Positions 10,337-20,163 are shown, counted from the stretch's first letter. The stretch: 64,000 bases of DNA from Candidatus Collierbacteria bacterium RIFOXYD2_FULL_45_13 (GCA_001774685.1 MFAS01000001.1:897252-961251), one strand, 5' to 3'. Made by a program: numbers and translations. The notes: generated by a model not told the origin, from the letters alone.

Positions 10337-10570
10337 GTGAGTATCACCACCTTACTTCCTGTCGTCTTGTACGTTCTGATCGCCATCGAAATCACCATCA
10401 CTCTATTCACTGACGCACTCAAGAGCAAACCACTCACCTCTATTGTTTTGATCATTGGAATAGCTATCAGTAGCCTACTTTTTGCCTTAAACAGCCCATT
10501 CGTTGCCATCTGTTGGCTGTCTCTCCCCACCATAGCCACATACAACCTACTCAAACTGTACCGTAAGTGA
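10337..10570 (+). CDS. small membrane protein (GTG start)
   Basis: SD AAGGAG 7 nt before the GTG; two TM helices; terminator at 10575..10600. Confidence 0.45.
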   Translation: MSITTLLPVVLYVLIAIEITITLFTDALKSKPLTSIVLIIGIAISSLLFALNSPFVAICWLSLPTIATYNLLKLYRK

Positions 10571-10608
10571 TCCTCCACCCGCCCTAAGGTGGGTTTTTTT
10601 ATTAATAT

Positions 10609-11328
10609 TTACTTAAAATCCGCGCCGACCATAATCATCAAATCCGCCTTCGGATAAGTTTCTGCAGACTGTGTGGCGACTTCACCGCCTACCAGCTGAG
10701 CCATCTCAGCCGCCTGTTTACCCAACTTCCCAGTCAAATCCACAACTAGCGTTTTTTCATAAGCATCGGACTTCGCCGTCGCCTTGGAAACTATCGAGAC
10801 ACCGGGAATGTTCTTCTCTACAATTCTTTTCTCCAACTCATTAGTTATACCCGAGTTTTTTGAACCATTTACCAGTGCTATTTTCAAGGGATTTCTTTCA
10901 TCTACTCCACTTATAGATATCTGTTGATTCCCGATATTCACCGGAACAACATCTACCAAAAGGTTTGTCGACGGCCGATAAATGTAAGCCTTTTGCGCCT
11001 TCGAATATATCAGGATCTTGTCACCATTCTCGGCCCTAGCAAATACGGGTTGGTCTTTCAGCTTTTCTTTGTCCGTCACCGTCGCCACCACCGGCTCTTC
11101 ATCAGCAGGTAAAACTACTAATTTTGCAAGTTTCTCTGTCAGCATCTTTATTTCCTCCCTAGCTACGCTGTTCGGATCTTTCTTCAAAGTTTCAATCTCT
11201 ATACCCAATCTTTTATTCTGCTTTGATAGCCGAAAGGAGTTTAGTGTTAGCCCTCCAATTACTACGACTACTCCAATTGCTAAAAGCTGAGCTTTTGACA
11301 GTTTGATCATTTGTACTAAATTTAACAA
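10609..11328 (-). CDS. LytR_C-domain (LytR/CpsA/Psr C-terminal) membrane-anchored protein
   Basis: N-terminal TM anchor, coiled-coil region, C-terminal NGSKNSGITNELEKRI...VVDLTGK segment resembling the LytR_C domain. Last gene of the minus-strand operon with the giant protein. Confidence 0.5.
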   Translation of the reverse strand: MLNLVQMIKLSKAQLLAIGVVVVIGGLTLNSFRLSKQNKRLGIEIETLKKDPNSVAREEIKMLTEKLAKLVVLPADEEPVVATVTDKEKLKDQPVFARAENGDKILIYSKAQKAYIYRPSTNLLVDVVPVNIGNQQISISGVDERNPLKIALVNGSKNSGITNELEKRIVEKNIPGVSIVSKATAKSDAYEKTLVVDLTGKLGKQAAEMAQLVGGEVATQSAETYPKADLMIMVGADFK

Positions 11329-11353
11329 ATAATTAATAAATTTACAAGTTTTT

Positions 11354-14300
11354 TCACAATTGAGCGCTTGATGAAGCCATTGGTGTAACCTCCGGCGTTA
11401 TTTCCACAGTCGGTGTCGGTGTAGGCGTCGTCGTGATTATCAATGCTGGGGTAGTAGTCGGGGTGACCTCCGGCGTTATTTCCACAGTTGGTGTAGGAAC
11501 GGGAGTCGCCTGAGAAGACGGCCCTTGAGTGCTCACGGCACCTTGCGACTCTATTGACTTGGCATCTTTAACGGCTATGGCTATCCAGGCGAATCTAAGG
11601 TCCATACCTGCTACTTTGTTCATTCGGATCTTGAATCCTTTAGTGTTCACATCAGCGACTGCATGGGTCGGCAGATTATTCATATCCACGGCTCCGACAA
11701 TCTGTAGAGTCACATTTACCACCGGCTCGTTTGCATATTCTTTCTCAAACTTTACTTCCACTTCATTACTGTCTCCTTTGATGATGGCAAACCCGGCCGT
11801 GTCTTTGTTAAAGGTTGGTCTACCGACAAAGAAAACATCGCCGTGGAAAATTACTTTGTCAAAGAACTCGGCCACATTTCTGAACAGGTTGTTGACAATA
11901 TCGGACATGGATAAAGATTTATTCTCTGCGCTCGGTGTTGCCGTGGCACTTGAAGTCGCAATACCCGCCACCTTGTCAGAAAGCGTCGTAATACTATCCG
12001 CCATTAGTTTGAAGCCCTTGATCTCATTAGCTTCTATCTTGTCGGCCTTGATTGTTCCCATAAAGATAGCGTTTCCGTCGGAGGTGATCTTTACATTCTC
12101 ATTCCCCTCTTTGTCCTGCATCACAAACATGCCGGTAGCCAATATATCTTGTGTGATTACTTTAGGAGTAATCACTTCCAGTCCCGCTACCACTCTATCG
12201 GTCATGATTTCCGAAATATTGGCCGAAGTTGAAGCAATCTGTTCTTTTTCCAGCACCAAGTTGTTTAGCACTTGAGATTTGTAGTCACCGCTAGTTTCAT
12301 CCAGTCCTTTCATGACACTAGCCAATTTACTGCCGCTACTCTCACCGTTTTTGACAAAGGCTAGCACCAAACCCACACCCTGTCCGTTAAAGTCCGACAT
12401 CGCATTACCGATAATCGCTCCCGCTTTGGTCGCTTTCATAGCGATACCAGGTACTGATGAGGTAGTCAGCAAATCCCCCGCCTTGATGGCACCGTTTTCC
12501 GTATTTACCTTCACCGGAACTCTACCCGACAAAGCCACCGGTACAGCTGAGGCACCTTCACCATCTGTTCCACCAATTGTTAATGCTGGTGCGGTTGAAA
12601 CAATTCCCAGTACTGAAGGATCGTATCTTCCCTCAGATTTCTTCACTCCGGCTCTCAGGGATGAATCCAGACTCACCACATCTCCCATTGCGATAGACTT
12701 ATCATTGGTAGAATATATCTCCGCCAAGTCGGCCGTGCTATTTGTCACTTCAATCAAAGTAATGGTCGCGTCTGTCTTTGTTGGGATACTACCCAAAGTA
12801 GAATTGACACTTGAACAAAGCGTGTATCGGACATTGCTGGTCGATGCCGGTGAGTCTAGAAATGCCAAGGTAGCTGTCCCTTCTGCACCCGCACTCGAAA
12901 AGAATTTCCCAAATGAACCATCCACCTGATTTGATGGTGGATTTACACACGTTGGTGTAGCTCCGATACCTCTTCGAATAGTTCCTACGGCATCGGTATC
13001 GCCCGCACCCCCGGCCGCTATTACCACCTCAACCATTACCAATACAGAGTTTGACGCCGAAGTTGGGGTAATATTGGCTCTGGTAGTCGGTGTTGTAAAG
13101 AACTCAGTCACATTATCATCGCTCCATGCCACATCCGCCGGATCATTGAAACTTCTGGTTTGCAGCACATTCTCATTGGCACAGCTAAATAAATTGGTCG
13201 AAGAGTTCCATTGTAGTTTTTGATTGGTTCCGGTACAGCTTGTTAGTCCACTGCCCTGGGTTGTCGTAAAGTTTGCTTGTCCAGCCGCACTTATTGACCA
13301 ATCGTTGCCTCCAGTCATAGCCAGAGTTGTCGCCGCATTACTGTTTCCAATCGAGACTACATCTGCTGCTGTACCATTGGTAGCTATATTGATAGTGTCT
13401 GTTCCTGAATTGGTCACTCCTCCAATGTCTATTGTCTTGGTGTTGGCATTGTCTCCAAAGTTTATCCCTCCGGTACCTGTATCAAAGTTCAAAGCGGTTG
13501 CTCCAGTGGTATTTCCAAAAGTTATGGTCTTTGCGTTTGCCCCTGTCCCAATACTTATTCCCCCGGTTGTACCCGAATCAATAGTTAAAGCGCGAGCAGC
13601 CGTAGAAGTGATGTCTGTCCCGATAGTTCCGTTAAACATTATCCCATTGGTCACTGTTCCGGCTGTTCTCGTGATATTCAAACCACTTGTCATTGTCCCT
13701 GCCCCAGTTTGCTCGATCAATAATCCATTGGTTAATGTCCCGCTCGCGATAGAATTAAATATTCTTTGAGAGGAAACTCCGGCGGTATCTTGATTTTCCA
13801 AAGTAAATGATGTGGGAGTTGTCACCTCTCCTAGCGTGAACTCAATATTCCGAGCATCAGTTGTGGTAAGCGTATTACCGTTATCGTATGCGACCTGCAA
13901 TGTCGCTGTTCCTCCACCGGTTTGATCAGACGCACAAGCCCATCCACCAGCATCAGTCCATTTCAAAAGTTCTCCGTCAGCGCATCCTTTTAATAAAGTC
14001 AGTCCTGATAAGGAAACTTCTAGACCAGAATCTGACGATGCCAATCCGGTTGTGCCGGATGTCGTTAGATTTATACCCAAAGCATTTGAAGAATTTGTTA
14101 ATCCGTTGCCTGTTAAGTCGGTAAACAAATCACTTCTAAGTTTTAGGGTAGATGAGAAAGTTGCATCTCGACTGATCAAACCTTGGAATCCTCCAACTCT
14201 AGTAACTACGTCTGATTGTTGATCTAAAATATCGGTCGAACCGGCCACAGAAAAGGCAGGGAACGCAAGTAAGACATCGGGATCATACCAGCCGGGTACT

Positions 14301-17300
14301 ACCTGCACCGCAATTCTGGTCACACCGGCAGTACTTTTTGCTGCCAATGCTTTTCCAATAGTCGGTCCAGCTTTGGTCTGCTTCATGCCAACTCCAGCTA
14401 CCGAGCTAGGAGCGATCGGATCACCAATGGCGATTTCACCATTTGTTATATCCACTTTTGTATTAACCCTACCAAGCATACCCACAATCTCTTTACCGGC
14501 GTTGCCGTCAGTCCCAAAAGAGTCATTACCCACAAAAGCTGCTGTGTCCGAAACCACTCCCAAGATAAGGTCACCCGTCACCGCTTTTTGATTTCCTGAA
14601 GTTTTTGAAGCAATAATATCTCCGGCCGCATACGATCCTGTTATTACTTCCGTCCACTCGGCCAAATCAGCACCTCCTGAGGTAAACTGAACACCGGCGT
14701 TATTTAGTACAATTCTACCTACCCCTTCACCAATAGTACTTGCTGTTGCAGATCTATAAAACTGCATAAATCTAGTAAGGTTCCCAGTCATCGTCCCGGT
14801 ACTTAGAGTCATCACAGAATTTGCAACAGAACTAGTCTGATTTAAGTTTGTCACACTCGCACTAGCCGTTGCTGCTTGGTTATCGACTACCGTAAATTTA
14901 CGTCCGGGAGTCGTCGTTCCAATTCCCACTTTGTTATTCGTCGCATCTACAAACATCGTATTAGAATCAAAATTAATTCCACCTGTCCCCGCGTTTATAT
15001 TCACAGTTCCTGTCGAGGCGGTCGAGCCAATCGTAAGGGTCTTTGCCCCTGTTCCACCGGTGCCGAAGTTTAGAGCTTGTACCCCTGTTCCGGTACCGAT
15101 ATTGATGGTTCCGGTTGAAGTTCCTCCGGCAATCGAAACATCAAAATTTGAAGAATCGTTTAATGAAACAGTGGCTCCTGTGATGGCCAGACCCGCAGTA
15201 CCCGTTAGTAAACTGGAGAAAGTCTTGGCTCCGGCCAGTGTTTGTGTGCCGGTCGATACTACACCCCCATTTGACCCATCTGCCGGCTGAAGATTCAGTA
15301 CCTGTCCTGTAAGTGTGGCTCCATTGGCGTTCGGTGTAGATCCAATTGCTGCCAAGGTGACATCTCCGGTGTTAGTTCCCGAGCTGGATCCAGTAAAATT
15401 CGATCCGGATAATCCCCCGGCACAACTTAGAGCCCCTGTAGCATTTACAATGGTGCATCCCGTCGAAACCGAACCTCCACCAATTAATATATCTCCCGTA
15501 GAAGTTCCATTGAGGTTTAATACTCCAGATGCTCCTCCGTCAATATTCATGGCGTTAGCTCCCGTAGAGGTTACTGTTCCCGCGCCTGCAAATGTAAGAG
15601 CTGTGGCTGAAACACCGATTGTGTCGATTGAAGAGACTCCGGTTAAGACTCCGGAGTTAATAATCAATCCATTAATCGTATTGGTTGTAGTCGGACCCAC
15701 AAAAGCTCCGGCTGAAGTAATTGTTCCTGTTCCTGATGTAGAAATATTTCCTGAGGTAGTCACAGCATCTCCAGCAGTACTTGGTGACAAAGTAGTTCCC
15801 GTTCTACTCCAGTAGCCAATAGTTCCCGATGTTGGAGCGGTTGAAGTTAGTTGCTTACTGCCGTCTGTATATACTGCCGATGAGGCAGATAAACCGGTGT
15901 CAATAATATCTGTAAGTGTCGCCAATCCTGCAGTAGAAACAGACCAAGTAGCTCCACCCGTTAACGCTAAAGTTGTACCCACCGTACTTGATCCGATTGT
16001 AATTGCTTTCGCGTTCGCATCGTTACCGATTAATATATTACCCGTCCCTGACTGTAAAGTAATTGGCGTGTTAGCCGTCGTATTTCCAAAGGTCAAACCA
16101 CCGGTATTAGTTGTATTTATTATGGTATTGCCTTCAGCTATCACTCTAAAGGGAGCCGCCGTAGAACCTACTTCCGTGGAGGCTTCTAAAATATACTGTA
16201 ACCCGGCTCCGTTTGTTGACGCCGCACTTTCACCAAAACTAAAAGCCGTATTATTTGCAGTCGTTAGTGACCAATTCCAGATTTGCGCATGGTCACCGTT
16301 ACTGATAGTGTTTCCTCCTGTCGCGGCTATGACCGCCGAAAGAGCGGCCCCAGAACCGGCACCGCAGGCAGCATCGGTTTTATTACATAATACTTTCCAC
16401 GCTCCACCTTCATAAATATTAAATTTTCCGGTCGAATCTAGTAGTATTGCCCCATTCGTTCCGGCCGCTAGCGATGTTGTATCTTGATCAATCACTAGTA
16501 TATCGGGAGTTGACGAACCGCCTCCGCCACCACCTATTTGAATAAAGCCTGATGCTGCTCCATTGGTATTAATTGATAGCGTAGAGGCCGTGGAAGTAAT
16601 ATCACCACCATTGATGGCGATATCTCCAGAAAGGGTTAAACCTGTAAATGCACCCGAATTAGGTGTTGTTGAGCCGATTGTTCCTGGTATTGCCCAAGTC
16701 CCACCAAGTAGTGTAGACGAGTTCAAGACTCCGCTTCCGGAGAAAGTTAATGTTGCCCCCGTTCCCACAGTCATGGTTGCCGACGTATTAGTTCCGCTTG
16801 TTAGAGTGTCGAACGAAGACGCTCCACCGGTTCCGGAAGTACCATCTGCCCCAGCAGGGCCCTGCGCTCCCGCTATTCCCTGATCTCCCTTGTCCCCCTT
16901 GTCTCCCTTATCCCCCTTCGGTCCACCTGCTGGCCCAGGAGGACCGGGCGGGCCAGGGACGACAGTTATGCCTGTGGAGGGGAATCCGGGGCCGGACTGA
17001 GTCAAAATCGTGAGCGAGCCATCGCCGACGTCTTGTTTTACCTGAAAGAATGAGGCAACCATTCCCAAATTGAGTGGCACCACCGCCGGTAACGGGGAAA
17101 CATTATCTGTTGTCACGGCTAACACACGACTGTCCGGTTTTCTGTCGATAGACTCCGCCAATTTCAATATCTCTTTCGCTATCATGGCCTGAGTGGCGTC
17201 AGGTTCACGTATGGCGTTCTCCACCCTGACCGAAGTTAGTTTTCCCCGGGTATCAAAATTACCCAGTATCCTTTTATTAGTCGTCAAAGTTTGCAGTTCA

Positions 17301-17806
17301 AAATCCCCCGCCAGTTTTCCTCTTACAATTTTGCCGGTTACCAACTTCACCGGCAATAAAGTATTGTCCGGAAGTGTAATGGTGGTCGCCCCTCTTTCGA
17401 CAAGCTGGGCACTTTCCTTACCACCCTTCTTGGAAATAAAAATGTCTACTTTACTATCAGCTTCCGTAATTAGTCCGGAATCGCCATTTTGATAGGTGAG
17501 TTCCACCTCATTGGGAAATCTTTCATTGGAGACAACCGCGTTTTCAATTCTGGCAAAAGAGAACGAGCCATTCGTCCTCAGTACCGTCATCAAATACGGT
17601 TTGTCAAAAGTGCTCTTCTGTAACACTTCAGGCGTTACATCGTTGATTTCTTCTGTGCCAACCACTTCCTTGGAGACCGGATAAATATAGTTAAACTTGC
17701 TGGCGACCACTGCAAAAGAGACACCGGTGATCACCAAAAAAGTTATCAAAACTCCTTTGATGGTTCGATTGTATTTATTTCCGGTGACTGGTAATACTTG
17801 CTCCAT
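11354..17806 (-). CDS. giant (2150 aa) cell-surface fibrous protein: N-terminal TM anchor, collagen-like GXY repeats, long Gly/Thr/Ser/Ala-rich beta-rich region with two internal homologous modules, C-terminal PT-rich tandem repeat
   Basis: Single uninterrupted ORF. GPPGPPGPAGGPKGDKGDKGDKGDQGIAGAQGPAGADG at nt about 16860-16960. Repeated modules carrying ADLAEW and ADLAEIY at nt about 14280-14680 and 12350-12735. TPTPTVEITPEVTP occurs twice at the C-terminus. Confidence 0.8.
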   Translation of the reverse strand: MEQVLPVTGNKYNRTIKGVLITFLVITGVSFAVVASKFNYIYPVSKEVVGTEEINDVTPEVLQKSTFDKPYLMTVLRTNGSFSFARIENAVVSNERFPNEVELTYQNGDSGLITEADSKVDIFISKKGGKESAQLVERGATTITLPDNTLLPVKLVTGKIVRGKLAGDFELQTLTTNKRILGNFDTRGKLTSVRVENAIREPDATQAMIAKEILKLAESIDRKPDSRVLAVTTDNVSPLPAVVPLNLGMVASFFQVKQDVGDGSLTILTQSGPGFPSTGITVVPGPPGPPGPAGGPKGDKGDKGDKGDQGIAGAQGPAGADGTSGTGGASSFDTLTSGTNTSATMTVGTGATLTFSGSGVLNSSTLLGGTWAIPGTIGSTTPNSGAFTGLTLSGDIAINGGDITSTASTLSINTNGAASGFIQIGGGGGGSSTPDILVIDQDTTSLAAGTNGAILLDSTGKFNIYEGGAWKVLCNKTDAACGAGSGAALSAVIAATGGNTISNGDHAQIWNWSLTTANNTAFSFGESAASTNGAGLQYILEASTEVGSTAAPFRVIAEGNTIINTTNTGGLTFGNTTANTPITLQSGTGNILIGNDANAKAITIGSSTVGTTLALTGGATWSVSTAGLATLTDIIDTGLSASSAVYTDGSKQLTSTAPTSGTIGYWSRTGTTLSPSTAGDAVTTSGNISTSGTGTITSAGAFVGPTTTNTINGLIINSGVLTGVSSIDTIGVSATALTFAGAGTVTSTGANAMNIDGGASGVLNLNGTSTGDILIGGGSVSTGCTIVNATGALSCAGGLSGSNFTGSSSGTNTGDVTLAAIGSTPNANGATLTGQVLNLQPADGSNGGVVSTGTQTLAGAKTFSSLLTGTAGLAITGATVSLNDSSNFDVSIAGGTSTGTINIGTGTGVQALNFGTGGTGAKTLTIGSTASTGTVNINAGTGGINFDSNTMFVDATNNKVGIGTTTPGRKFTVVDNQAATASASVTNLNQTSSVANSVMTLSTGTMTGNLTRFMQFYRSATASTIGEGVGRIVLNNAGVQFTSGGADLAEWTEVITGSYAAGDIIASKTSGNQKAVTGDLILGVVSDTAAFVGNDSFGTDGNAGKEIVGMLGRVNTKVDITNGEIAIGDPIAPSSVAGVGMKQTKAGPTIGKALAAKSTAGVTRIAVQVVPGWYDPDVLLAFPAFSVAGSTDILDQQSDVVTRVGGFQGLISRDATFSSTLKLRSDLFTDLTGNGLTNSSNALGINLTTSGTTGLASSDSGLEVSLSGLTLLKGCADGELLKWTDAGGWACASDQTGGGTATLQVAYDNGNTLTTTDARNIEFTLGEVTTPTSFTLENQDTAGVSSQRIFNSIASGTLTNGLLIEQTGAGTMTSGLNITRTAGTVTNGIMFNGTIGTDITSTAARALTIDSGTTGGISIGTGANAKTITFGNTTGATALNFDTGTGGINFGDNANTKTIDIGGVTNSGTDTINIATNGTAADVVSIGNSNAATTLAMTGGNDWSISAAGQANFTTTQGSGLTSCTGTNQKLQWNSSTNLFSCANENVLQTRSFNDPADVAWSDDNVTEFFTTPTTRANITPTSASNSVLVMVEVVIAAGGAGDTDAVGTIRRGIGATPTCVNPPSNQVDGSFGKFFSSAGAEGTATLAFLDSPASTSNVRYTLCSSVNSTLGSIPTKTDATITLIEVTNSTADLAEIYSTNDKSIAMGDVVSLDSSLRAGVKKSEGRYDPSVLGIVSTAPALTIGGTDGEGASAVPVALSGRVPVKVNTENGAIKAGDLLTTSSVPGIAMKATKAGAIIGNAMSDFNGQGVGLVLAFVKNGESSGSKLASVMKGLDETSGDYKSQVLNNLVLEKEQIASTSANISEIMTDRVVAGLEVITPKVITQDILATGMFVMQDKEGNENVKITSDGNAIFMGTIKADKIEANEIKGFKLMADSITTLSDKVAGIATSSATATPSAENKSLSMSDIVNNLFRNVAEFFDKVIFHGDVFFVGRPTFNKDTAGFAIIKGDSNEVEVKFEKEYANEPVVNVTLQIVGAVDMNNLPTHAVADVNTKGFKIRMNKVAGMDLRFAWIAIAVKDAKSIESQGAVSTQGPSSQATPVPTPTVEITPEVTPTTTPALIITTTPTPTPTVEITPEVTPMASSSAQL

Positions 17807-17823
17807 TTAGATTATTGGCTTGA

Positions 17824-19788
17824 TTACTCCATTCTTTTTTTTGAAAATACAAATGAAAAAGACACGGTTAACACTGCCACCGAGAGTAAAAACAAAACAA
17901 TCATCAGACCGGACCGGCTAACATCCAAAATAGAAAAAATCGGTTGAGAAACTACTACTGTCCAGTTCAGATCTTTTGCCTTACCCGAACTAAACAAAGA
18001 ATATTTTCCGGCCGAGTCATACCCGATTTCCGCTCCCGTCGTTCTCGACCATAACAAATTCGTAGTATCGGACTCAGCCACCCTTTCTCCCACTACTCCT
18101 GTTTGGGGTACAAAGAGCCACCGGCCTCCGCCATCAATGAGTGTCACTTTTTGATCCAAAGAGCTCGTGGCGATTTCTTCCAACCGGTCGCCCATGGCGT
18201 TGAGGTTCACTGTAGCCACCATGGCTCCAATCACCAAGCCTTTTTCTGTAATTGGGGTCCCAATAATAATCGCCGTGTTGGAGACTCCTGCCAAGGGCTC
18301 AACCGTCCGGGAAAAATACTTATTTTCCGCACTCACCGATCGGAAAAATATTTCACTCATATAGTATCTGCCAACCACATCGGAGGAAAATGGATATGAA
18401 GAGATTGCCTTTCCGCTATTGTCCAGCACCAAAACTATTCCCAAGTCCGCGTTGCTTTTGAATATTGCCTTGGTAAAACTATCCATCCCGGCCGTGTCGC
18501 CTGCCTTAAAGGCCTTTTGAAAGAGAGGATTCTGAGCTATACCATCCAGGGCCGAAAAACCGGAATTGACCACGTTCTCGGCTGTCAATCTCCCAAAATC
18601 TGCTTTCTCGGCGAGATTCCGATTGGCGTCCTGCAAAAGAATCGACTGAACAATAGCGATTAAGATAATCACGAGCGAGAAAAACATCAAGACTGTACCA
18701 AACATCCTGAATACCATAGGCCGATCGGTCTGAAACTTCAATTTGAACAGTTCCCAAATCGGCTCTATCAGTCCGATCATCCCGGCAATCAAAATAAAAA
18801 ACGCTCTGTCCCAATAGTTGTTATTAGCGAAATACAGAGCCAAAAAGATCAGCAGTATCCCACAAAACGCCGAAAAGGTTTTGAGTACTTTCTTTTCCCA
18901 AAAAAAGCCATAAAGCGTAATCATAATTAAAGAAACTACCACCATCGTCCAGATCCACTTAAAACCGTCCAACATCAACAACAGTCCGCCCGAAATCTGT
19001 GAAAGTGACGGGTCTGCCGGGAAAAGCACAAAGATCAAGGCAGTACTGATGAGCAGACCTTGAATAAAGAGCATGTAGGCGGTCGAAGACTTAACCGCAA
19101 AGGCGGCCTCGATCAAAATCGTCACTGCAAAAAGCCCATAGATCATAAAACCGTCAATATCGCTCCCCTGAAGCAATATCCACGACAAACCAAGGTAAGT
19201 GACAAAGAGAACCACCCTGAAATAATTCGAGAGATTCCGATAACGAACGAACTCCTCTTGAATCATGTCCGCTATGATGAGACCCAGACCGGACAGCATC
19301 AGTGAAATTCTGATGGGTGTAAACCAGATAGAAAACCGACCAACGGTCAACGCATCCACTTGTTTGGTGTGCAGGTACATGGAAGCACCCAAAATAATCG
19401 AGCTCAAACTGATGAACCAATCAAACAATTTGGGAATAGTTACCCGCTCCTCAAACCATAATTTGATTACCGTCAGCGGTTTTTCACCCCCCAGCTCCTC
19501 CAGACTCTTTCCTGGTCGCGGTAAGGGCAAGATGACCGGGCCCGGCTCTGTCGGAGCTACTTCTTCTTTGACCTCCGCCACCATTTTCTCTACCATCTTT
19601 TTATCCTCCAACTTTTCTTTGGAGGCACCTGCGCCTAAAAACTTATCTATTTCCGACTGCGGGATTCTAAACTTTCCCTTGCCGATACGGACGGATTTGA
19701 TATCACCGTCCTTCAAAAATGAATAGATGCTGTTCATTGAATAACCCAGCAGCTTCGAGGCTTCTTTGACCGAGTAAGTTTTTTCCAT
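17824..19788 (-). CDS. membrane-embedded one-component regulator: N-terminal excisionase/MerR-type HTH, about 9 TM helices, extracytoplasmic Cache-like sensor domain, C-terminal TM
   Basis: N-terminus SVKEASKLLGYSMNSIYSFLKDGDIKSVRIGKGKFRIPQSEIDKFL (HTH_17-like). Long hydrophobic core, then an approximately 230-aa soluble domain and a final TM. Stop codon lies 18 nt upstream of the giant gene. Confidence 0.65.
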   Translation of the reverse strand: MEKTYSVKEASKLLGYSMNSIYSFLKDGDIKSVRIGKGKFRIPQSEIDKFLGAGASKEKLEDKKMVEKMVAEVKEEVAPTEPGPVILPLPRPGKSLEELGGEKPLTVIKLWFEERVTIPKLFDWFISLSSIILGASMYLHTKQVDALTVGRFSIWFTPIRISLMLSGLGLIIADMIQEEFVRYRNLSNYFRVVLFVTYLGLSWILLQGSDIDGFMIYGLFAVTILIEAAFAVKSSTAYMLFIQGLLISTALIFVLFPADPSLSQISGGLLLMLDGFKWIWTMVVVSLIMITLYGFFWEKKVLKTFSAFCGILLIFLALYFANNNYWDRAFFILIAGMIGLIEPIWELFKLKFQTDRPMVFRMFGTVLMFFSLVIILIAIVQSILLQDANRNLAEKADFGRLTAENVVNSGFSALDGIAQNPLFQKAFKAGDTAGMDSFTKAIFKSNADLGIVLVLDNSGKAISSYPFSSDVVGRYYMSEIFFRSVSAENKYFSRTVEPLAGVSNTAIIIGTPITEKGLVIGAMVATVNLNAMGDRLEEIATSSLDQKVTLIDGGGRWLFVPQTGVVGERVAESDTTNLLWSRTTGAEIGYDSAGKYSLFSSGKAKDLNWTVVVSQPIFSILDVSRSGLMIVLFLLSVAVLTVSFSFVFSKKRME

Positions 19789-19989
19789 TTTTTACAATAT
19801 GTAACAATAATTACAAGTATCTACAATTCACTGTATAGGAAAAACCAACCTATGTCAAACCTCAATCTGTGCGTAATGTTACATTCGTTTAACCAAAACA
19901 GTTTTTGATCTGACCACACACGCCTGCGTCCTCCTTTCGTGGTAAAATATCCTCTGTTATAGATCGTAACCAAAATAAATCAAAAGATT

Positions 19990-20163
19990 ATGGCAAAAAA
20001 AGGTCCCCGACAACACATGGGTTTGAAGTGCAGTAAATGCGGTCACTTCAACTACATCTCCGAGCGAAACAAAACAAACACTCCCGAGAAACTGACCATC
20101 AGTAAATATTGCCGCACTTGCAGAGATCATACCGACCACAAAGAGGCTAGTAAGCTGAAGTAA
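19990..20163 (+). CDS. rpmG: 50S ribosomal protein L33
   Basis: 57 aa, MAKKGPRQHMGLKCSKCGHFNYISERNKTNTPEKLTISKYCRTCRDHTDHKEASKLK. Shows the L33 zinc-ribbon signature. Below the 60-aa threshold of the ORF track. Confidence 0.9.
   Translation: MAKKGPRQHMGLKCSKCGHFNYISERNKTNTPEKLTISKYCRTCRDHTDHKEASKLK

Follow-up and report, generated by a model that had tools for sequence, protein, structure and literature searches.

Three minus-strand genes lie close together in a Collierbacteria chromosome, one of them encoding a membrane protein with a DNA-binding head and another a giant protein with a collagen-like segment. This arrangement raises the question of whether the genes form a regulator with its target, the parts of one surface structure, or the remains of a phage. 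The window analysed is a 64,000 nt stretch of Candidatus Collierbacteria bacterium RIFOXYD2_FULL_45_13 (GCA_001774685.1, MFAS01000001.1:897252-961251). Candidatus Collierbacteria, of the Microgenomates (CPR), is an uncultivated groundwater bacterium with a tiny genome.

Organisation of the cassette

17824..19788, minus strand: gene 1, 654 aa
11354..17806, minus strand: gene 2, modular fibre protein, 2150 aa
10609..11310, minus strand: gene 3, 233 aa when counted from its ATG at 11310, with a TM helix at the N-terminus, a conserved middle part and a probable LytR_C domain at the C-terminus
19990..20163, plus strand: rpmG, divergent from gene 1, the two having a 201-nt intergenic region in common
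10577..10594, strand undefined: GC-rich hairpin at the convergent end of the cassette, with a T-run on the plus strand only

A sequence-only reading of this DNA had described three tightly packed minus-strand genes with gaps of 18 and 26 nt. All three ORFs exist (17824..19788, 11354..17806 and 10609..11328), and the spacing had to be corrected: the gap between genes 1 and 2 is 17 nt, and that between genes 2 and 3 is 25 nt with a TTG start for gene 3 or 43 nt with the ATG at 11310. The ATG is most likely the true start; gene callers used it in five assemblies, and homologues align from that Met. Because its T-run is found only on the plus strand, the hairpin is the terminator of a small plus-strand membrane ORF (10337..10570), and possibly also a weak bidirectional stop.

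Gene 1 joins an HTH domain to a membrane core and a predicted Cache sensor

19633..19788, minus strand: HTH_17 / excisionase-type DNA-binding domain, aa 1-52
18634..19479, minus strand: polytopic membrane core with nine TM helices, aa ~104-385
17941..18633, minus strand: extracytoplasmic double-Cache (dCache) domain, aa ~386-616

The HTH / about nine TM / Cache / TM topology proposed earlier was borne out by structure prediction and by a fold search. In order, the chain consists of HTH_17 (aa 1-52), a disordered linker (53-100), nine TM helices (~121-385), dCache (~386-616) and a tenth TM helix (617-647). The model thus places nine TM helices ahead of the Cache region and one past it, followed by a cytoplasmic tail of 6 residues, and the positive charges fall on loops predicted to be cytoplasmic.

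The HTH scored 38 bits against HTH_17 (PF12728; gathering threshold, GA, 27) and 36.7 bits against TIGR01764 'excise' (threshold 28.8), and its predicted fold was that of a MerR/Xis-like winged HTH. HTH_17 was found in all 31 family members, and it is the most conserved part of the protein, with 10 of the 20 invariant columns falling in aa 7-46. dCache_1 (PF02743) scored 31.3 bits on gene 1, under its GA of 45, and was likewise matched by 31 of 31 family members (best E 1.2e-20); in the model the region forms a double PAS-like fold atop a long stalk helix, with a TM helix on either side. The membrane core has neither a Pfam family nor a PDB fold match, the invariant columns showed no ligand motif of a known kind, and a search of gene 1 for a kinase, receiver or other output domain found none. 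The family comprises 38 clusters and is restricted to the Microgenomates.

Gene 1 therefore has a DNA-binding domain, TM helices and a sensor in a single chain without a phosphotransfer domain. It may regulate target promoters upon a sensed signal, for which the support is the conserved operator-like site at its own promoter. As nothing with a cytoplasmic output follows the dCache domain past the C-terminal TM helix, signalling back to the N-terminal HTH via a flexible linker is mechanistically unclear.

Promoter and candidate operators

19830..19858, minus strand: promoter-like site TTGACA-17-TACAGT, ~40 nt upstream of the gene 1 ATG, 10/12 matches
19792..19816, minus strand: operator-like element between the -10 box and the gene 1 ATG
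11311..11348, minus strand: AT-rich spacer ahead of gene 3, with ACTTGTAA at 11342-11348 and the palindrome-like TTGTTAAATTTAGTACAA at 11311-11328

Alignment of 11 Collierbacteria loci revealed that the TTGACA -35 box, the TAnAnT -10 box and a TTGTAA-N6-TTACAA palindrome are invariant, while the spacer, the flanks and the upstream sequence vary. In the window the palindrome reads TTGTAA-TTATTG-TTACAt (19799-19816), with an extra TTGTAA at 19792-19797, and it is the sole site with at most one mismatch in the whole 64 kb. In 13 loci the palindrome (at most one mismatch) lies at positions -27 to -30 relative to the ATG; elsewhere, in ~20 kb of each locus, it is almost absent. Within 100 nt upstream of the homologues of gene 1, TTGTAA is enriched 38-fold; the Gottesmanbacteria loci (23-26% identical) have it as direct copies at ~10-12 nt spacing. 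We regard the palindrome and the TTGTAA repeats upstream of gene 1 as a candidate operator, and the conservation of such an element between the gene 1 promoter and the start codon independently supports the view of gene 1 as a regulator. An alternative explanation as RNA structure is weak, the palindrome forming only a weak hairpin (-3.5 kcal/mol, z 0.12).

Ahead of gene 3, TTGTTAAATTTAGTACAA has 2 mismatches to TTGTAA-N6-TTACAA. An equivalent site with one mismatch was found directly 5' of the LytR_C gene in two loci (L017 and L018), and the remaining Collierbacteria loci have TTGTAA motifs. This spacer could be either a second operator or a promoter internal to the cassette; against the operator, its TTGTAA can equally be taken for a -35-like hexamer.

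Gene 1 and the fibre N-terminal domain are inherited together

17696..17776, minus strand: N-terminal hydrophobic helix of the fibre, aa 11-37
17141..17611, minus strand: family-specific N-terminal beta domain plus helix, aa 66-222, always co-occurring with gene 1

The fibre begins with a hydropathy peak at aa 18-36, modelled as a helix at aa 11-37 (AF2). The hydrophobic helix expected at this end is thus present, and may be read as the signal anchor originally proposed or as a long signal peptide. The beta domain that follows has no PDB fold match, and its family has 62 representatives; like the 38 clusters of gene 1, this family is small and fixed at the N-terminus.

In all 23 related loci of Collierbacteria and Gottesmanbacteria (20 distinct genome loci, L006, L007, and L030 with the same gene pair), at 23-91% identity, the gene with the fibre N-domain directly follows the gene 1 homologue. 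The LytR_C gene comes next in 8 of the loci, and a large ORF also lies after P0028. The three-gene neighbourhood, which the sequence-only reading had proposed to look for, is therefore a conserved cassette and not a chance arrangement. Gene 3 is TM-anchored and scored 21.1 bits against LytR_C (PF13399), under the GA of 22.2, and a 58% identical homologue in L007 scored 27.1 bits; PF13399 is carried by many of the 281 clusters. Gene 3 is read as a probable LytR_C cell-envelope protein.

The strict co-inheritance of gene 1 and the fibre N-domain would be accounted for equally well by docking. Gene 1 would then be mainly a membrane dock or assembly platform, in which the 10-TM core and dCache hold the N-terminal helix and beta domain of the fibre; the HTH would be secondary, serving autoregulation only or nucleoid tethering, and the sensing of an external ligand would not be the point. 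Besides the one-to-one neighbourhood across this range of identity, the two families are similarly small, the N-domain has a fold without a known relative, as expected for a dedicated interface, and the Cache module lacks conserved ligand-binding residues other than structural ones. Furthermore, Gottesmanbacteria show a 4-nt overlap between the two genes, which suggests translational coupling and roughly stoichiometric production, commoner for physical partners than for a regulator and its target. However, the best-conserved segment of gene 1 is the HTH, an operator-like palindrome is kept at its own promoter, and dCache domains of solved structure are overwhelmingly ligand sensors; the roles of regulator and dock are moreover compatible with each other. 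As the main function of gene 1, docking seems unlikely to us, if worth keeping in mind.

The giant fibre protein contains phage-type chaperone domains

16817..16954, minus strand: collagen-like GXY run, aa 285-330
14693..16816, minus strand: shaft A, Gly/Thr/Ser/Ala/Asn-rich, aa 331-1038, from composition and internal repeats
14312..14692, minus strand: first phi29-gp12 / Peptidase_G2-type intramolecular-chaperone-like domain, aa 1039-1165
12755..14311, minus strand: shaft B, aa 1166-1684, partly duplicating shaft A
12362..12754, minus strand: second Peptidase_G2-type domain, aa 1685-1815, with the motif A-D-L-A-E at aa 1692-1696
11996..12361, minus strand: conserved linker region, aa 1816-1937, 26-79% identity in relatives
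11552..11995, minus strand: H-type-lectin-like domain at the C-terminal end, aa ~1938-2085, matched by Pfam over aa 2016-2077
11357..11551, minus strand: Pro/Thr-rich C-terminal tail with a two-copy repeat

Several features of the giant protein that were first noticed from the sequence alone were confirmed. The 6.4 kb ORF is single and intact, with no frameshift and the same translation in five independently assembled contigs (L001-L005). The collagen-like run consists of 4 + 11 GXY triplets with a one-residue break at K297 and scored 25.1 bits against Pfam Collagen (PF01391), under the GA of 27.2. The C-terminal Pro/Thr tandem repeat is made up of two 49-nt copies (11382-11430 and 11460-11508), and the C-terminus itself (...TPEVTPMASSSAQL) has no LPxTG sortase anchor. 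Internally duplicated modules were found as three pairs, aa 544-641/1397-1523, 890-954/1400-1482 and 1039-1162/1685-1811. Most relatives have a GXY run of 18-579 residues at the same position past the N-domain, with Collagen matches at E 4e-100 and 1.5e-29, and in gene 2 the run would be expected to form a trimeric triple helix.

Profile comparison identified one of the duplicated pairs as two phi29-gp12 / Peptidase_G2-type intramolecular chaperone domains, which had been overlooked. A profile of 15 copies matched 3gqh (E 4e-6), starting exactly at gp12 residue D692, as well as residues 689-743 of 6qz9 (E 3.4e-5) and the chaperone domain of tailspike Dpo31 (E 2e-4). PF11962 was matched by 10 of the 15 copies (best E 5.7e-6), the window copy reaching 20.9 bits, under the GA of 25. 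All 15 copies have an invariant A-D-x-A-E, aligned with D-F-A-E of gp12; in the first domain it is A1046-D-L-A-E1050, which aligns with the gp12 cleavage site, whose acidic residues we take to be D692 and E695. Between the second domain and the C-termini of virion proteins from jumbo phages, e.g. PA5oct gp359, identity is 35%. This pair of domains implies a fibre made of phage-tail-fibre-type parts.

By analogy with gp12, whose domain is released by autocleavage once the trimer has assembled, the two domains might cleave themselves. However, autocleavage of gp12 reportedly requires ATP, which is not available outside the cell, and the copies do not have the terminal position of the gp12 domain, copy 1 being internal and copy 2 being followed by ~340 residues. 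We count both the ATP need and the internal position against autocleavage of the fibre.

The linker past the second domain could not be assigned to a family. The lectin-like domain scored 18.7-22.4 bits against H_lectin (PF09458), under the GA of 24; the family was matched by 8 of 11 relatives (best E 4.4e-7), with L028 above GA at 26.7 bits, and one fibre relative has an SH3b domain. The distal position of the H-type-lectin-like domain, together with the SH3b domain of that relative, supports the idea of an adhesion fibre, whose tip may bind glycans. The shaft is mosaic between genomes: shaft A is 92% identical to that of L009, whereas the N-domain is just 62-65% identical and the parts flanking the shaft 62-80% identical to those of the other genome.

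The fibre might instead be a structural coat or hair-like nap of the envelope, like the BclA filaments of the Bacillus exosporium, rather than a specific adhesin, with the lectin-like domain acting as a trimerisation or chaperone module only. BclA is indeed built as a collagen stalk whose C-terminus carries a globular domain that trimerises, the lectin-like domain lies past a chaperone-type domain, the position of the cleaved-off part in phage proteins, and LytR_C indicates the cell envelope. On the other hand, a mosaic recombining shaft is typical of receptor-recognition proteins, H_lectin and SH3b are binding domains, and the fibre is encoded once, beside a sensor. We consider a mere coat doubtful.

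The cassette is chromosomal

In several genomes the cassette is at the same chromosomal position, adjoining rpmG. The earlier reading had warned that homology of the giant protein to ordinary phage tail fibres would reclassify the locus as a prophage remnant, and tail-fibre-type parts were indeed found. Except for the domain-level similarity to jumbo phages and a single IMG/VR match, to the G2 domain, no phage structural, packaging or integration genes were found nearby, and no phage family or viral contig matches. A prophage remnant with a domesticated or decaying tail fibre would fit the Peptidase_G2- and Peptidase_S74-type chaperone domains among relatives, the jumbo-phage similarity, and locus L031, where a related fibre (G2 domain 70% identical) and a LytR_C gene lie between terminase small and large subunits and a serine recombinase, but it is very unlikely, since phage genes are absent within 10 kb either side (the neighbours being rpmG, ddl, GNAT, M20 peptidase and tRNAs), the giant protein has no PHROG match, the ORF is unbroken and the same in all five assemblies, the fibre starts with a membrane helix and not a baseplate adaptor, the position beside rpmG is kept, neither gene 1 nor the C-terminal domain nor LytR_C has relatives in IMG/VR, and gene 1 is a cellular-type sensor.

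A model for the cassette

We read the whole cassette as a chromosomal, lineage-specific, autoregulated and sensor-coupled surface attachment fibre of Collierbacteria and Gottesmanbacteria, to which we give about an even chance and whose mechanism we infer as follows. Gene 1 would be a membrane-integrated one-component regulator whose dCache domain senses a cue outside the cell. The signal would pass through the bundle of ten membrane helices and alter the activity of the N-terminal BldC/Xis-like HTH, tethered by its disordered linker of ~50 residues. At its own promoter the HTH would bind TTGTAA-N6-TTACAA, immediately past the -10 box, and perhaps also a related site ahead of gene 3, and would in this way set the expression of the cassette. 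The fibre would be exported through its N-terminal hydrophobic helix; this helix would hold it at the membrane together with the family-specific beta domain, for which the gene 1 product may be the docking site. Trimerisation would proceed via the collagen run and the two gp12-type intramolecular chaperone domains; the long, recombining Gly/Thr-rich shafts would then present an H-type-lectin-like tip to a glycan on another cell or surface, possibly a host. Gene 3 would be an envelope accessory, a TM-anchored LytR_C protein travelling with such fibres. Directly shown are the folds of the domains, the synteny, the promoter with its palindrome, and the mosaic make-up of the shaft. The scores of Collagen, H_lectin, LytR_C, dCache_1 and Peptidase_G2 in the window, each under its gathering threshold, weigh against this model.

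In a bolder form, which we think improbable, the proteins of genes 1 and 2 would make one contact-sensing organelle: the N-domain would sit on the dCache/10-TM protein, engagement of a host by the lectin tip would be relayed along the fibre to dCache, and the tethered HTH would switch transcription. If true, an episymbiotic CPR bacterium would have made, out of domesticated tail-fibre parts, a mechanical or ligand relay that couples host contact directly to gene expression.

Comparison with known systems

No description of the cassette, the fibre N-terminal domain or the HTH-dCache partner was found in the literature searched. The statement that such fibres belong to no well-described system thus holds for this cassette, but not for the general class, as collagen-like surface fibres are known (Scl1/2, BclA).

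ToxR, CadC, TcpP and BcrR of Enterococcus have an N-terminal cytoplasmic DNA-binding domain, one or more membrane spans and an extracytoplasmic or membrane sensor in one polypeptide, and regulate adjacent genes without a phosphorelay. Gene 1 has the same one-polypeptide sensor-regulator logic. It differs in its HTH, which is HTH_17 / excisionase / BldC-like and not an OmpR-type winged helix or XRE, in its ten TM helices instead of one to four, in its sensor, a dCache domain lying between TM9 and TM10, and in its family of about 38 clusters found in Microgenomates only; DNA binding is here predicted. The HTH is also comparable to BldC of Streptomyces and to Xis/MerR-like excisionase-type HTH proteins; BldC, however, is small and soluble, whereas the gene 1 domain heads a 654-aa membrane protein, and the candidate site in Collierbacteria differs in being a palindrome.

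With phi29 gp12, gene 2 shares the fit of its duplicated-domain profile to the gp12 C-terminal fragment from the first residue, D692, and with gp12 and tail fibres in general a modular anchor-shaft-tip plan with a mosaic shaft; one relative has S74 in place of G2. In contrast to gp12, gene 2 is cell-encoded and membrane-anchored and has no PHROG match, and its chaperone-like domains are compact, without the gp12 insertion, and internal, the residues past the second copy including the lectin-like domain.

Scl1 and Scl2 of Streptococcus, BclA of Bacillus and the Pasteuria fibres have a surface-exposed trimeric GXY stalk beside a globular domain and serve adhesion or form a surface nap. Gene 2 is read as having the same plan, and its triple helix and adhesive role would be similar. 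Unlike these proteins, it has a collagen run of just 15 triplets in 2150 aa, consists mostly of non-collagen shaft with tail-fibre chaperone domains, and is linked to a dedicated sensor gene; unlike Scl1/2, it has no C-terminal LPxTG, and its anchor is N-terminal.

A report on Vampirococcus lugosii (PMC8080830) and a preprint on giant genes (10.1101/2023.11.21.568195) describe very large predicted surface proteins in host-dependent bacteria with reduced genomes, which are thought to mediate cell-cell contact. Gene 2 is likewise a very large predicted surface protein, as in CPR, episymbiotic and predatory bacteria, and the lineage differs, being Microgenomates here. The cassette is a novel combination of already known parts.

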